Positions 32,423 to 64,000 of a stretch of DNA of 64,000 nt are shown here, piece after piece. The stretch lies in sequence record MG673519.1. One strand, 5' to 3'. The notes under the pieces are model-generated. The model was not told where the DNA came from. It did not search any database and saw only the letters and a program-made list of their open reading frames with translations. This DNA is from Escherichia phage LAMP. Position numbers and translations under genes: made by a program. How positions within the stretch are numbered: position 1 is the first letter of the stretch; each line of letters starts with the position of its first letter.

Positions 32423-32726
32423 CAATAGTTCAAGCAAAGGCGCTACTCTTTGCTCCGTTCTCTTATGAACTGCTTACAGTTTCCTGTAAGATCGGACTAT
32501 ATCTTCATCTCCACCTTTACGTGCTGAGAGACAGGCGCTTCCGTAACACTTGTTACGTACTCCCTTCCGGGATAGTCTCTGAACTTTCCGTGACACAAAC
32601 TTTTCTACATAGATCATTGATGTTTATGTCACGGCTTAGCTGCTGATTGGCATATCTTTCGACTTAGCTTTCCAGCAATTCACCTGTTTTGCTTCTGCAC
32701 ATTTCTATGCAGTGAACCAATTATTT
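32423..32726 (-). mobile_element. group I intron (about 304 nt, no ORF) interrupting the DNA polymerase gene
   Basis: Exon 1 stops one codon after TFIYAFN; joining 32727 to 32422 restores NYGAGDAKLG; 5' exon ends in U, intron ends in G, GGUU near intron 5' end can pair with exon AACU. Confidence 0.7.
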
Positions 32727-34089
32727 AGTTAAAGGCATATATAAACGTCTTCGCATTATCACGAGTAGGAAGACCAGCAAGTTTCTGGTTGTGGGAGTGG
32801 ATATCACCTTCAAGAAGGATATCACGATACATAATAGCAGAAGCTAAACCACGTTCTGCCAGAGCTTTCTTAGCTGGATTATTCTCTTCGATTGCTTCAG
32901 CAAGCATATCCCTACACTCTTTAATGAGGTAGTGAGCGAGCATACGAAGTTCAAGTCCAGAACCATCATACCCTAAGAATACTTCTTTACCAGCGGGTAT
33001 GTAATATTTGTAAGCACCTACAGGCTTATCTTTCTTCCCCGGCTTACCTTTCTCGTAAATTACGTTAGTACCTTTTCGTATATAACAACCATCAGGAACA
33101 ACGTTAGTAATAACGAAAGGACGAGAGTGATCACTGTCTGAATTATAGTCAGACTCAAACAAACTGCGACACTCATGACCAAACAAACCACGGGAGGGAA
33201 TATTAACCACGATACGATGTTTGAATCGAAAAGTTGGCGTAGCGCAGCTGTTAGCTTCTGCCGAAAGTTTACCATCTTCGCGTTCCTTTGCTATGAGTCC
33301 ACTGATAAGACCTAGCCTGTGAGCCGCTACAACGCGCCTCTTAAGCAAACTTCCAACACTCCCTAGCTCGCCCCCTAACCCTTCTTCAAGAGTCTCCTCG
33401 AGGTTTGTAGGAGCTGTAGGCCACTTGTTTGAGGTAGCTAGTGCTATCTTAATCTCATCAAACGTGATAGGTCTACGTCGGTTAGGGTTTAAACCTAAAC
33501 CAAACACATAAGCCTTCATATAGTTCTTAGTCTTAAACCTAAAATGCTTCTCTAAGAACCTCCTAATATCTGCGTCAACCATCTCGGCTGTCTGCTTCTG
33601 TTTAGCATTACCTCGCATCCAAGCTGAATACCACGCTTGGTATGTTCCATACTTTCGTATATCTTTCTTGATTTCAAAAGTATTCCAAGGTTTCTTTGAT
33701 ACGTTAAACTCTGGAGGAAGAAAACCCTCATCCATAAGGGCTTCTTTAACTCGTGCATCTTTCGATGGGTCAAAGTCCACGTATTCAACACAGGTGAATG
33801 CTCCACCAATGTCTTCTCTCTTAAGGCCAACTCTATCACAATAGGCTTGAGGCCACTTCTGTAAAGCTCCAGACTTCTTAAATGGCTTCATATAAGTAGA
33901 GCCATCTAGTCTCATCTTAGGTAAGAGAGGGATCAGTTCTTTGTCGATATTAACAATAATCTCTTTAAGGAGGTGAACATACCACCGAGCATTTCTTCGG
34001 TTGAAACTCACTCCGTGCTTCGCTTGCTTAGAGATTATATCAGCGACAGTCATCTCTGTCAAAAATGGGAGAGCGTCCGGGTTGCTCAC
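32727..34089 (-). CDS. DNA polymerase (family A, T7 gp5-like), exon 1 (polymerase domain)
   Basis: Motif A GYDGSGLELRMLAH and motif B RDNAKTFIYAFN; colinear with T7 DNA polymerase from the end of its exonuclease domain. Confidence 0.85.
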
Positions 34090-56849: not shown

Positions 56850-56925
56850 TGGTGCGCCCTACAGGATTTGAACCTGTAACCAATAGCTTAGAAGGCTACT
56901 GCTCTATCCATTGAGCTAAGAGCGC
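56850..56925 (-). tRNA. tRNA-Arg(UCU): tRNA-Arg, anticodon UCU, CCA encoded
   Basis: Hand-folded cloverleaf: 7-bp acceptor stem, D-arm GCTC/GAGC, anticodon loop CTTCTAA, 5-nt variable loop, T-arm ACAGG-TTCAAAT-CCTGT, discriminator A, CCA. Confidence 0.9.
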
Positions 56926-59925: not shown

Positions 59926-60143
59926 TATCCATATACCTTAACATGATTGATTCGACGTGAATGATGATAAGAAGACTCAACAGCCATTGCCTTTAATTCT
60001 TCTTTTCGTTGGTTAGTGTGTACAATATCCCAATGATTATGATCGTGTTGGCGCTGTAATATCTTACTACATTTGCGATGGTTTCCCGTGCTGCGACGTT
60101 TCTCACAAATAGGACACTTGCCAAAATTATTACTGAATATCAT
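59925..60143 (-). CDS. small Cys/His-rich protein
   Basis: CPICEK...C...HDHNH pattern. Confidence 0.3.
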   Translation of the reverse strand: MIFSNNFGKCPICEKRRSTGNHRKCSKILQRQHDHNHWDIVHTNQRKEELKAMAVESSYHHSRRINHVKVYG

Positions 60144-60367
60144 TTTCTCAATCCTAACTTTCTTAAGACACGGCCTAACGTTGTTTCTTGAGTAATAATA
60201 TATCTGACCGCTTCACGTTCCAACGTTTCAATCTTCATTGGCGACGGATACCATTCACCGGTAAGCATACACCTATACTCAACGCCATACTTTTTAGATA
60301 GGCGGTAATGTTGACCGTTGACAAGGTTCCTATAAATCGTGGTATGCGTCGTTAACATAATCGTCAC
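60140..60367 (-). CDS. hypothetical protein
   Basis: 75-aa ORF. Confidence 0.3.
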   Translation of the reverse strand: MTIMLTTHTTIYRNLVNGQHYRLSKKYGVEYRCMLTGEWYPSPMKIETLEREAVRYIITQETTLGRVLRKLGLRK

Positions 60368-60410
60368 CTTTGATTAGATTCTTTGATTAGTCCACTGAAT
60401 CAATGCACTG

Positions 60411-60446
60411 ATAAAAGAAAAGGCGCTACCCGTTAAGATAGCGCCT
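60411..60446 (-). terminator. rho-independent terminator after first early gene
   Basis: Perfect 8-bp inverted repeat aggcgcta/tagcgcct followed by TTTCTTTTAT on the minus strand. Confidence 0.7.
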
Positions 60447-60469
60447 TATGTTTATTTAGATTGTCTTAC

Positions 60470-61378
60470 TTATGCCGCCTGACGTGCCGCCATAATTTCA
60501 GCCGCTTTGCGCAATACTTCTTCCTCTTCTGCTTTCGCCGCTTGTTCGGTACGGGTAGCAACCGTTGAAGAGATACGACCGCGCAGACTTTCTAACTTCT
60601 CCTGCATAGCTGCAATAGTCTTTTCCATTTCATCAGCGTATGAATCCAGTGACTCAAGTTCCTTGCTTGATGCGTTCATCAGATAATCATCCGAGATCGC
60701 TACCGTCGAGGCCGTGACTTTCTTAATGAGTGAATCAAAGGATTTTTTAACTTTGCCGACTTCCTCGCTTAAGGCAATGGTGTTATCACTAGTAGCGCCG
60801 TTACGTTCATCGGCCAACAATTTTGCTTCAATACGGATTGCATTCAAGCGTTCAACTAAAGCGTAAATATCCTGATTAAAATCTTCCTTGTTTTTCGCCG
60901 GTATTTGAAGGTGTGCCGCTACGTTGTCATTGCAGCCTTTGAAGAAGTTAGGATTATCTACTTCAATTGCACGACCTAAAGCAAAATTCTCGAAAGCATT
61001 CGACCAGCGAGCGCGGTTTTGTTCCATTTTGGCCTTAATCTGCGCTTCTTTCGCGTCTTCTTTCGCTTTCGCCTCACCTTCCAGATTAATCCACTTTTTA
61101 CGACCGTTTGCCGCCTCGGTGTTAAACTTGATTGGAGTTAAGAAAGTAATTGCAGTGGCAATAACATCCATATCGCGGAAACGTTCAGTTAACAGAAAAT
61201 CGACCGCCGCTTGCAATACATCTAACTTCTTCCCGTTGCTACGGAAATGCTGCAAATGCCCTAAAAGGAAGTTAGAAACATCTTGTTTAATCGCCGCGTT
61301 ATTTTTGCGGATGTTGTTTGCCAGCGCGTTAAAACCGGATTCTTTTACCAGATTAAAAACTTTAGCCATGATATTCAC
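60470..61378 (-). CDS. early protein of unknown function (Ala/Lys/Glu-rich, helical)
   Basis: First sizeable ORF downstream of the sigma70-type promoter array; visibly higher GC than neighbours; isolated by its own terminator. Confidence 0.5.
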   Translation of the reverse strand: MNIMAKVFNLVKESGFNALANNIRKNNAAIKQDVSNFLLGHLQHFRSNGKKLDVLQAAVDFLLTERFRDMDVIATAITFLTPIKFNTEAANGRKKWINLEGEAKAKEDAKEAQIKAKMEQNRARWSNAFENFALGRAIEVDNPNFFKGCNDNVAAHLQIPAKNKEDFNQDIYALVERLNAIRIEAKLLADERNGATSDNTIALSEEVGKVKKSFDSLIKKVTASTVAISDDYLMNASSKELESLDSYADEMEKTIAAMQEKLESLRGRISSTVATRTEQAAKAEEEEVLRKAAEIMAARQAA

Positions 61379-62322
61379 CTTTCAATTGTAAGGGCACTAT
61401 TGCCCCGCTCGCTATGAGCTTTTTAAGTCACTATTAACTTAACTATAAACGCTCACTGTAAACGCTTATAGGTAAGCGGAGCGGTCTTATCAGGAGTTAA
61501 CCTTGCCGCTCCCTTATCCGTGGTCTTTCATCTGGTATCTTCAACTAGTCGCTATAAAGAAAGCCGACCTGATAGCGATGATCAATCACCACAATAAGGC
61601 TAGTGTGTCCGACTCTAATTAGTTACTTTTATAGTAACCGTCGGCAATATCGCTCCCGTCGCTTTCGCTCCAGCTTACTTTCATTGATCAACTCTTTTCC
61701 TCCAATATCGCCCACTACGGGAATTGGCACTTTTAATCTTGCGTGTTTAATATTTCATTTTCACAAATGTAATACTTCAAAGAAAAAGTCATATAATCAA
61801 CTATTTTCGGCTAGTTTACTACATAAACCGGCTATGTACTTTCATCTTATGACGAATATCAAGCCGTTCACGCCGTAAACGTTCACACTAAAACCTTATT
61901 GTTAAATAGCAATTTGCCACTTTTTAACCATACCCCGCCGCCCTCAATTGAGCGTTAATTCGTCGGACTTGCCTACCCTGATCAACTTCTTTCACCGTAG
62001 CGCCTTTTTAGCTAGGCCGCCGCTACCCATTAACCGTGGGCGATTAGTTTTAGCCTTGCGTGCACTCGATGGATCCATTTTATCAGTGGTGACGTTTCCA
62101 GTTAAGGGATTGTAAAGCTGTTTACCCTGATAATTTAGGGAGCTTTACGCCGTTTTATCTGGTATGTTTTCCGATGGTCATTATCGTCCAACATATTCAA
62201 CCGATATAGAAGTATGTTTAAATTATTAAAGAGCGGTAAATCTATCAGTGTGCTTTCTCACACTATGCAACTGTTAGCCGTTGTGTCGCTTTCCTTAAGC
62301 GGTGATTTGCTTAAGTGTGCTC

Positions 62323-62351
62323 ATTATGAATCATTTTGCTTCCGCCGTCAA
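62323..62351 (-). promoter_or_regulatory. sigma70-type promoter (TTGACG-N17-CATAAT)
   Basis: Read on the minus strand; lies within a repeated unit. Confidence 0.6.
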
Positions 62352-62628
62352 TCACTTTTTTAATCTTTTTTCATCGTTCCCGTTATTGGGAAGATATATC
62401 AATCAGCTATATTTGATTGAAGATTAAGCGATCAGGCTTGAACTTATGATTCATATTTTTAAAGAGCGGTGAAGCATTTACAGCTTAACACATCGTGTTA
62501 GCTTGTCAATCTCTTTTTTATCATCTTCTTTCATTCCGTTCCCTTATCTCGCGTGAATCTATGCGAAAGGGCAAGATGATAAATTTTTAAAGAGCAGGAT
62601 ATTTTGATTCATCGCTGAATATGTGCTC

Positions 62629-62657
62629 ATTATGCATCAGGCTTTTTCCGGTGTCAA
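62629..62657 (-). promoter_or_regulatory. sigma70-type promoter (TTGACA-N17-CATAAT)
   Basis: Read on the minus strand; A-tract-rich upstream region. Confidence 0.65.
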
Positions 62658-62849
62658 TACTCTTTTTAAGAATATTTTCACTTTCTAGCCTGATTTTTAA
62701 AGAGCGTTTAAAGTTGTATGGCTCCCATAACACCATTTGATAATCAGCTAACCCGCGATTATTTGGGGGCATAGTATCCGCTTGCCTACGTCTGACTTGC
62801 TTCACTCACTAGGGAGTTACTTGAGCGGTCAACTTGTCTTTCTAAGCTC

Positions 62850-62877
62850 ATTATAGGTTAGGCTTTTCAGTTGTCAA
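62850..62877 (-). promoter_or_regulatory. sigma70-type promoter (TTGACA-N16-TATAAT)
   Basis: Consensus hexamers on the minus strand with A-tract UP-like element upstream. Confidence 0.7.
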
Positions 62878-63156
62878 ATACTTTTTCAAGTATTTTTCAC
62901 TTTCTAGCCTACTTTTTAAAGAGCGGGGCAATTTCTTGCCTTGTATGTTTTACATCGTACCCGATGGAAATGAGTATACGCGAGCCTTCAGAAAGTGCAA
63001 TAGGGGAAAGCAAATTATTTTAAACTTTTTCACTATAGGGAAGATAGAAGAGCGAGCGAACGTGATACACCATAGAAAACGGCTTGTAAAGCGATAAGAA
63101 ACGGCCTAAAACGCGCTACAGCGAGCTAAAAGGGGATAAGGTATACAATCACCTTA

Positions 63157-63186
63157 GAAAAGAAAAAAGCGCCTTTATTGGCGCTT
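63157..63186 (-). terminator. rho-independent terminator
   Basis: aagcgcc-tttatt-ggcgctt hairpin followed by TTTTTTCTTTT on the minus strand. Confidence 0.65.
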
Positions 63187-63207
63187 ATAGGGATGATTTA
63201 AAGTTTT

Positions 63208-63459
63208 TCACCATTTAGGCAAATCTGCATCAAGTAGGCCAGCAAGTGACAATTCACCGTTAACATATATCGATCTAAAGTCTTCTCGATTGATATCGAT
63301 GCGCACCATTTGCAGCCATTTTTTGGCCTCGTTAAAGCTCATTGAGCAAAAAGAAACCGTGGGTAAAATGACGTCACCATTTTGCAAGCTGAACGCTATA
63401 AAAGTATCGCACACGCAGCAAGAAAGACCGTTCGACAATTTAATCACTTTGATACTCAT
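63208..63459 (-). CDS. hypothetical Cys-containing protein
   Basis: 83-aa ORF with GGGAG RBS, followed by a terminator. Confidence 0.4.
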   Translation of the reverse strand: MSIKVIKLSNGLSCCVCDTFIAFSLQNGDVILPTVSFCSMSFNEAKKWLQMVRIDINREDFRSIYVNGELSLAGLLDADLPKW

Positions 63460-64000
63460 GTTTTTACACTCCCAAAGATAGGTTATTTATTTGCTGAATT
63501 TAGCGCCATAAAACTTACTAATCTTGTTTTTCGGGCTTAACTTACTATCAGTGAATGACTCGATCACTTCACAAACGATCAGAACAAGTAAAGGAAAGAC
63601 TACAGCCAGAAACATCATTACCAGAACTATCATTTCTATTACTCCAATCACTCAATTCATAGGCTTCAATTTACTACTACTTAATAAGGAAAGCAATCAC
63701 CACGGGCAAAATACTACCCGCAGAACAGACCACGGGAAACATCGCCAGATAATGCGGTATTAATATTCCACTAAACCAGATCATCAACTCATAAAAGAAA
63801 AAGACCAACAGAACGCTGAAAAAAGAAAGGAATAAACATCAATTATTAAAAGAAATATAATCATCCACTTGATTAATGCATATATCATTATTGCACTCAT
63901 AATCATTACTATTGAAACTATTTACATTCAAACTACGGGGCGGTGCGATAGTTGCTATCCGGTATTAATAGCCTCGATATAATCAAGCATTAACAGCGCT

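Follow-up and report, generated by a model that had tools for sequence, protein, structure and literature searches.

Predicted promoters and boxA elements ahead of a conserved structured RNA in phiEco32-like coliphages

What does a virulent coliphage place between a cluster of promoters and the first gene that they serve? We addressed this question in a stretch of 64,000 nucleotides from Escherichia phage LAMP (record MG673519.1; the whole stretch is termed the window). Here, the minus strand at 61370 to 63000 carries a promoter array and, between this array and a gene homologous to phiEco32 gp124, a leader of 947 nt. A first-pass annotation had described the region as early promoters in repeated units, each with a conserved element ahead of it, and had left the leader as a place for small open reading frames (ORFs) or a regulatory RNA. 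We propose that the region is probably the main early transcription control region of the phage, in which host promoters would load Nus factors at boxA elements and then transcribe a structured leader together with the early operon. The leader is a large, conserved, structured noncoding RNA from the minus strand.

An array of promoters alternating with boxA

The taxonomy of its similarity matches identifies the window phage as a phiEco32-like coliphage, a podovirus of the Gordonclarkvirinae. A 2-kb region matches about 98 phage records at 73 to 91% identity, including phiEco32, SU10, NJ01, 172-1, ES17, and the BASEL phages Bas87-94, and the matching phages belong to the genera Kuravirus, Suseptimavirus, and Nieuwekanaalvirus of that subfamily. 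The DNA identity of the spacer to phiEco32, SU10, NJ01, and Bas87-94 is 84 to 91%. The same taxonomy (Kuravirus/Gordonclarkvirinae) ruled out an N4-like phage, in which a virion RNA polymerase would be expected to use hairpin promoters.

A promoter scan recovered on the minus strand the three sigma70 matches reported by the first-pass annotation: P3 (TTGACA-16-TATAAT, 12/12) at 62850 to 62877, P2 (TTGACA-17-CATAAT, 11/12) at 62629 to 62657, and P1 (TTGACG-17-CATAAT, 10/12) at 62323 to 62351. P1 is the last promoter, with a predicted start at ∼62316. All three lie within 555 bp of an ORF-free stretch, and A-rich tracts of the UP proximal type (AAAAAAGTG, AAAAAGAG) precede each -35 hexamer, the UP-like A-tract ahead of P3 included, as the first-pass annotation had also noted. 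Two weaker promoter-like sites that it had missed (63000 to 62973 and 62510 to 62483, also on the minus strand) complete an alternation of promoters and boxA. P0 (TTGCAC-16-TATACT, 62973 to 63000) is a putative promoter with an A-rich tract upstream, and the site is kept at its position in Bas94, NJ01, 4E8, and SU7-type phages (TTGCAA-16-TATATT in SU7). P2b (TTGACA-16-TAAGCT, 62483 to 62510) is an 11/12 promoter in the SU7, PAS59, TH34, EK010, and Bas94 lineages. P3 is common to Bas94, NJ01, and 4E8, and P1 is conserved in all 19 relatives.

Promoter-like matches of at least 10/12 are not enriched over the window as a whole (15 observed versus 25 ± 5 in shuffles), and the case for the array therefore rests on clustering, on the common strand, on the A-rich tracts, and on conservation in 12 relatives of three genera, in which the hexamers are kept at 10 to 12/12 while their flanks diverge. 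The only other 12/12 sigma70 match in the window (TTGACA-17-TATAAT, 34034 to 34062, minus strand) lies inside the 5' part of the ORF at 32725 to 34089. As for the three direct-repeat units claimed earlier, the repetition is real but incomplete, with 75% identity over 48 nt and 82% over 45 nt.

An early promoter array at this place is already known from the literature on SU10 and phiEco32. The SU10 paper reports three sigma70 promoters in the homologous spacer (SU10 genes 120/121), as in phiEco32 (genes 124/125), and the three sequences in its Table S2 correspond closely to P1 and P2 and are identical to P2b. The SU10 promoter at 73511 is homologous to P1, that at 73996 to P2, and that at 73668 is the counterpart of P2b; the 12/12 promoter P3 is an addition of the window phage, being absent from the SU10 list. 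[quoted passage not shown] The published promoters thus lend support, through homology, to the earlier assignment of the array to host-polymerase early promoters of a virulent phage.

We then analyzed the repeated element, CCGCTCTTTAAAAA, of which the five copies announced by the first-pass annotation are indeed present, all on the minus strand (0.59 expected). Its 9-nt core GCTCTTTAA occurs five times in the window, never outside the array. The element had been taken for a promoter-upstream, UP-associated sequence. This assignment is not the best one, as each of the five copies is on the transcript a perfect match to the gammaproteobacterial boxA consensus GYTCTTTAANA (Baniulyte et al. 2017, PMC5725501) and stands downstream of a promoter. 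These five are the only matches to the consensus in the window, all of them in the array and on the transcribed (minus) strand, where 0.54 were expected.

From upstream to downstream, the predicted elements are boxA-E (GCTCTTTAAAA, 62914 to 62924), boxA-D (also GCTCTTTAAAA, 62695 to 62705, ∼+138 from the predicted P3 start), boxA-C (TGCTCTTTAAAAATTTATCA, 62585 to 62595, ∼+27 from P2), boxA-B (again GCTCTTTAAAA, 62457 to 62467), and boxA-A (GCTCTTTAATA, 62224 to 62234, ∼+82 from P1, with no promoter after it), the last supported by alignment as well. The likeness to the leader of the E. coli rRNA operons (rrn) extends beyond the consensus: boxA-C is one base off the rrn sequence TGCTCTTTAACAATTTATCA, and only 1 base in 20 differs. 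boxA-A, the last copy, reads CCGCTCTTTAA[T/C]AATTTA in all 19 phages, invariant but for one position. Its C variant agrees with rrn across 16 nt; GCTCTTTAACAATTTA, the form taken by this copy in many relatives, is identical to rrn over that length. The four boxA matches in the right 8.8 kb of phiEco32 all fall in the spacer, and none was found in the right-end 12 kb of the more distant phage 7-11.

Mapping of 12 phages from the three genera showed that promoters and boxA alternate and that the array ends with a boxA in 12/12, ∼82 nt past the predicted P1 start and with no promoter in the following 860 nt. In phiEco32, SU10, EK010, and EP335, the array opens with a promoter. The distances from a boxA to the next promoter vary (47, 48, 85, and 116 nt), or no next promoter exists, as for the last copy, and we consequently assign each boxA to the promoter that precedes it, with positions of +10 to +138 relative to the predicted transcription starts. 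The earlier statement that the element precedes each promoter is accurate for P2 and P3 (∼47 nt upstream), but not for P1, for which the nearest upstream copy is 116 nt off and the best-conserved copy lies downstream.

A small hairpin, in several cases with a GNRA-type loop, is found 0 to 20 nt 5' of every boxA copy. Two of them occupy a boxB-like position on the minus strand: GGCAA-GAAA-TTGCC (62927 to 62940), directly 5' of boxA-E, and H3 (AGTGTG-AGAAAG-CACACT, 62246 to 62265), just 5' of boxA-A, in which 3/7 pairs show compensatory changes with up to three pair types. boxB is dispensable in rrn, which makes a hairpin 5' of boxA a weak criterion. The predicted unit is thus promoter, small hairpin, and boxA, repeated as five tandem modules in the order found in rrn (boxB and then boxA). 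Three of the promoters are near consensus with UP-like A-tracts, and two are weaker in this phage.

A conserved noncoding RNA in the leader

From 62320 to the next gene, the transcribed strand is free of ORFs of at least 60 codons, as the first-pass annotation had stated. In an alignment of the spacer from 12 phages, the column majority is mostly 0.85 to 0.95 over the leader (62310 to 61400), versus 0.4 to 0.65 in the promoter array. This conservation is not that of a coding sequence. The three-base periodicity of variable sites is absent from every 150-nt window of the leader (P > 0.3) and present in every such window wholly in gp124 (P from 3e-4 to 3e-12); 42% of sites vary in the leader, versus 83% of third codon positions and 18 to 28% of first and second positions. 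The relatives share no stop-free frame on the transcribed strand of the leader, and for the 28-codon ATG ORF of the window phage, at 62078, the start codon is absent from the other phages. The small ORFs suggested earlier are accordingly not borne out, whereas the guess of an RNA was right: structure prediction yields a conserved minus-strand fold.

We aligned 19 distinct leaders with pairwise identities of 70 to 98%, for which RNAalifold predicted 245 pairs in 39 helices. Standard pairs are formed by 98.8% of the alignment cells, versus 33 to 46% when the partners are slid by 1 to 3 columns. As many as 77/245 pairs changed on both sides, compared with 8 to 12 after sliding and 34.8 ± 3.4 after shuffling (0/500). 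G-U cells largely exceed A-C cells (503 versus 16), and this excess implies that it is the RNA of the minus strand that folds, and neither the plus strand nor duplex DNA. By minimum free energy (MFE), folding is likewise stronger on the minus strand (z-score of -6.5) than on the plus strand (-3.8).

On this strand, the RNA is predicted to begin with a 5'-terminal hairpin of the P1 transcript (CTTAAGC...GCTTAAG, 62294 to 62315), seen in the alignments and in the MFE fold; in PAS59 and TH34, its sequence is replaced and the pairing is kept (TCACTAG...CTAGTGA). RNAalifold and the pair counts then delimit domain I (61923 to 62222, ∼300 nt), closed by the long-range helix H5, and domain II (61591 to 61902, ∼310 nt), closed by the 16-pair helix H19. 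The alignment and RNAalifold place a series of 3' hairpins at 61391 to 61590. One of these, H34 (61512 to 61478), covaries at 5/7 pairs of its stem around a nearly invariant 21-nt loop, CAAGGUUAACUCCUGAUAAGA (61505 to 61485). An origin of the two domains by duplication was rejected, their similarity being no better than chance. The apex of domain II (∼61803 to 61720) is replaced and expanded in the window phage only, with a ∼60-nt A/U-rich segment instead of a CGCC...GGCG hairpin that is present in all 18 relatives, including the closest one (Bas94).

Several short motifs are also conserved. The motif AUACCAGAU(A/G)AAA occurs twice in leader junctions (62153 to 62165 and 61526 to 61538) and is largely invariant across phages, as is GGUUAA in two hairpin loops (62030 to 62035 and 61497 to 61502), one of which holds the palindrome GUUAAC and could support loop-loop pairing. 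A base-paired contact is possible between AUUUACC (62235 to 62241), immediately 5' of the last boxA, and GGUGAAU (61373 to 61379), the Shine-Dalgarno region of the gp124 homologue some 860 nt away. All 19 phages preserve this putative pairing; the one change is a consistent one, from G-U to A-U, and true covariation is absent.

A search of 60000 to 64000 with cmscan against Rfam 15 (E ≤ 1; models including GOLLD, ROOL, group I and II introns, 6S, and tmRNA) gave only a spurious SprD match (E = 0.34; 20.8 bits versus a gathering score of 100), and no tRNAs were found in the promoter and leader region. A host origin was rejected, as neither 5,426 E. coli genomes nor the PLSDB plasmids contain a homologue. 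Motif scans built on the invariant loop retrieved only phiEco32-like contigs from IMG/VR and metagenomes, 8 of them being true metagenome relatives at 79 to 84% identity, and 16 bacterial matches among 185,579 species genomes, a number expected by chance (∼17). In existing records, the 1.9-kb region is left blank or filled with spurious small ORFs.

Proposed function, alternatives, and surroundings

At rrn, boxA RNA binds NusB/NusE and nucleates a Rho-resistant complex. By analogy, we propose the following course of events. Early in infection, host RNA polymerase would start at the promoters of the array, as is established for phiEco32 and expected here by homology. The nascent boxA RNA would recruit NusB and NusE (S10) with NusA, NusG, and SuhB, and a polymerase from any module would pick up these factors at the next boxA. 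Judging from the sequence, polymerase loaded in this way would become a fast elongation complex resistant to Rho, such as operates in rRNA transcription. The complex would run through the 947-nt untranslated structured leader into the early operon, with the gp124 homologue first, without Rho termination. The Nus complex may also aid the cotranscriptional formation of the leader helices that span 300 nt, as it does for rRNA.

Several points weigh against this proposal. A GU-rich boxC (similar to TGTGTGGG) was not found shortly 3' of any of the five boxA copies upon comparison with the rrn leader. In this phage, boxA-B is only ∼+10 from the predicted P2b start. In two modules, boxA lies ∼47 nt upstream of the next -35 hexamer, where a DNA-level role is possible for these copies. 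The leader RNA is G rich rather than C rich (C, 17.6%; G, 23.7%) and heavily paired, with no obvious substrate for Rho loading, and the sequence does not establish that antitermination is needed within the leader itself. Lastly, Nus factors at boxA can also repress, as they do at suhB (PMC5725501).

Other explanations of the element and of the leader were weighed against these data. The element could act as DNA on the promoter that follows it, serving either as an extended form of UP element or to bind an activator that boosts initiation, for example, Fis. It stands at a fixed 47 to 48 nt from the -35 hexamers of P3 and P2, within the 45-nt repeat that runs into the A-tract, and rrn P1 promoters carry Fis sites around -71. 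We nevertheless consider this improbable: with all copies included, the spacing to the next promoter is 47, 48, 85, or 116 nt, the last and best-conserved copy has no promoter after it and sits at +82 of the last one, and in four lineages the array opens with a promoter that lacks the element upstream. Moreover, the element does not fit the Fis pattern G-N13-C by eye, and it matches the 11-nt RNA consensus in 5/5 copies and the rrn leader over up to 16 to 19 nt. If the copies do act as boxA RNA, their effect could be negative: five high-affinity sites on an abundant early RNA might titrate NusB, S10, and SuhB away from host rrn (host shutoff) or attenuate early transcription or translation in the manner of suhB. 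The presence of several perfect consensus boxA copies per transcript behind near-consensus promoters is in favor of this idea, as are the documented repression cited above and the pairing possible in all 19 phages between the gp124 Shine-Dalgarno sequence and the bases just 5' of boxA-A. As the simplest known role of boxA ahead of a long untranslated RNA is antitermination (PMC7665894), we regard a negative role as unlikely, and titration and antitermination are compatible, not mutually exclusive.

The leader, for its part, could belong to a replication origin, its transcript serving as a folded primer or activator RNA like ColE1 RNA II or as in the T7 primary origin downstream of promoters. 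The region is long, ORF free, and conserved, with strong promoters and a folded transcript, and the literature covered does not define the origin of phiEco32-like phages. We find this likewise improbable, since neither iterons, DnaA boxes, nor an AT-rich unwinding block was seen, all 900 nt are under selection for pairing in the RNA, G-U pairs included, and transcription continues into gp124, which has a normal ribosome-binding site. That the leader encodes small proteins below the ORF threshold is hardly credible: some records (101114BS3 and CHD5UKE1) annotate many 30- to 45-codon ORFs there, but the codon periodicity and the common stop-free frame are missing, the ORF at 62078 has no start codon in the other phages, and base pairing explains the variation. 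None of these alternatives fits as well as boxA-mediated loading of Nus factors ahead of a structured leader.

A further and more tentative proposal, to which we give somewhat less than even chances, concerns the leader RNA itself. It might represent a new class of large phage RNA with its own function, acting in trans or after processing. It could sequester a host factor or a defense system, as a sponge or decoy, or could self-associate through its nearly invariant loop with GUUAAC. Such an RNA would be made in the style of rRNA, from promoters with UP elements followed by boxA, with the Nus complex shielding it from Rho and chaperoning its long-range folding, and the five boxA copies might drain Nus factors from host rrn.

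The locus has a constant setting. All annotated relatives have at this place a spacer of 1.8 to 1.9 kb free of ORFs, flanked by the 299/300-aa gene (gp124 in phiEco32) on one side and by the leftward operon that precedes it (genes 125 to 128) on the other. In phiEco32, the spacer occupies 72,787 to 74,730 of 77,554 bp. It therefore does not abut a terminal repeat, a point that the first-pass annotation had proposed to check, and lies 2.8 to 4.8 kb from the right end, with genes 125 to 128 in between. The gp124 homologue (60470 to 61369, minus strand) has 299 aa, a strong codon periodicity, and a match to phrog_13018, a PHROG without assigned function, and heads the operon that the array serves. 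It starts at an ATG at 61369 behind the ribosome-binding site AAAGGTGA (Shine-Dalgarno sequence and ATG, 61367 to 61382, minus strand), as the alignment and the annotations in relatives agree, not at the GTG at 61378 assumed previously. Nor is it the first early gene at the genome end, since another early operon (homologues of phiEco32 genes 125 to 128) precedes the array and is closed by its own intrinsic terminator (63186 to 63167, minus strand), which a terminator scan detected, which is conserved in the alignment, and which is annotated at the homologous place in SU10, 4E8, and SU7.

The terminator scan revealed no strong intrinsic terminator between the array and gp124. Directly 3' of the gp124 homologue, a strong terminator-like hairpin (12-bp stem and T-run; 60420 to 60447, minus strand) is present where SU7 and 4E8 annotate terminators too, and early transcription must therefore stop there or read through. 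Between the upstream terminator and the first module, a well-conserved block of ∼90 nt (63071 to 63162; column majority of 0.87 at its core) holds a hairpin, TAAGGT...ACCTTA. The records of SU7, PAS59, and MLP3 annotate a 66-aa ORF within the upstream variable part of the array, without a counterpart in the window. A tRNA-Arg gene (anticodon TCT) is located at 56850 to 56925 (minus strand), as reported for SU10 and SU7.

If our proposal is correct, a virulent, nonlambdoid phage uses the host rRNA antitermination signal with one copy per early promoter. This would bear on the need for antitermination or read-through raised for the related phage 7-11 and would connect Rho, which is known to act as a barrier against foreign DNA, with early transcription in phages. 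In bacteria and phages, structured noncoding RNAs of this size (>500 nt) are rare, and research of its own has followed from every one discovered. The phages that carry the present example (phiEco32, SU10, and Bas87-94) form a well-studied model group, in which it is easy to test by genetics.

Comparison with known systems

In the literature covered, the SU10 and phiEco32 papers deal with promoters and terminators only, and none mentions boxA or a structured RNA. The searchable literature, to which the primary phiEco32 transcription papers do not belong, contains no link between boxA and phiEco32 and no noncoding RNA for this phage. Within that limit, the boxA modules and the 0.9-kb covarying RNA seem not to have been described, and genuine novelty is most likely for the leader RNA. 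GOLLD and ROOL are in the same size class (>500 nt), with dense covariation and a phage context; the RNA described here differs from them in being the 5' leader of an operon in virulent coliphages, located after boxA, and in having no Rfam match.

boxA is known to shield long untranslated RNAs, namely, CRISPR arrays, from Rho (Stringer et al. 2020, PMC7665894). There too, boxA stands ahead of an unusually long untranslated transcript, but the locus belongs to the host, has only one boxA, and yields an RNA of repeats and spacers instead of a folded one. Phage lambda offers another comparison. Read directly from the sequence, nutL is CGCTCTTAAAAATTAA and nutR is CGCTCTTACACATTCCA, each followed by boxB. 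The boxA core CGCTCTT(T)A is common to both phages, and boxA-D and boxA-E equal the nutL boxA plus one T. In lambda, boxA comes before the boxB hairpin (GCCCUGAARAAGGGC), which binds N, whereas the conserved hairpins of the array precede boxA. We found no lambda-type boxB (5-bp hairpin with a GAAAA or GAAGA loop, within ∼10 nt) after the conserved boxA-A, and no N homologue is known in the group, although no search was aimed at N.

The E. coli rrn leader upstream of 16S reads ...CAACTGCTCTTTAACAATTTATCAGACAATCTGTGTGGG... (7 copies per genome, read directly), and its boxA and flank are nearly identical to those of the phage (TGCTCTTTAA[C/A]AATTTATCA). The rrn operons likewise have tandem strong sigma70 promoters (P1/P2) with A-rich upstream tracts, then a hairpin and boxA, and they too yield an untranslated RNA that is long and highly structured, long-range helices included; the predicted pairing of AUUUACC with the Shine-Dalgarno region recalls the rRNA leader-trailer helix. 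The rrn leader has one boxA and a boxC, versus five boxA copies and no recognizable boxC in the phage array. The two RNAs are unrelated, that of the phage is followed by protein-coding genes, and the Nus role proposed for the phage is read from the sequence.

The virulent coliphage T7 (NC_001604) has three tandem strong host promoters, A1 to A3 (starts at 498, 626, and 750), followed by a perfect boxA, GCTCTTTAACA, at 813 to 823. This boxA (with its flanks, CGCTCTTTAACAAT, 811 to 824) lies 63 nt after the A3 start and is followed by the RNase III site R0.3 and gene 0.3. The sequence AAAAAGAGTATTGAC upstream of T7 A1 is identical over 15 nt to that upstream of P2 in the window (62672 to 62653). 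T7 has a single boxA and a leader of ∼175 nt, whereas the window phage has one boxA per promoter and a covarying RNA of 947 nt, and the T7 array is located 0.5 kb from the entering end, whereas that of phiEco32 lies farther in, behind another operon. At the level of sequence, then, T7 provides a precedent for a predicted boxA placed after an array of early promoters.

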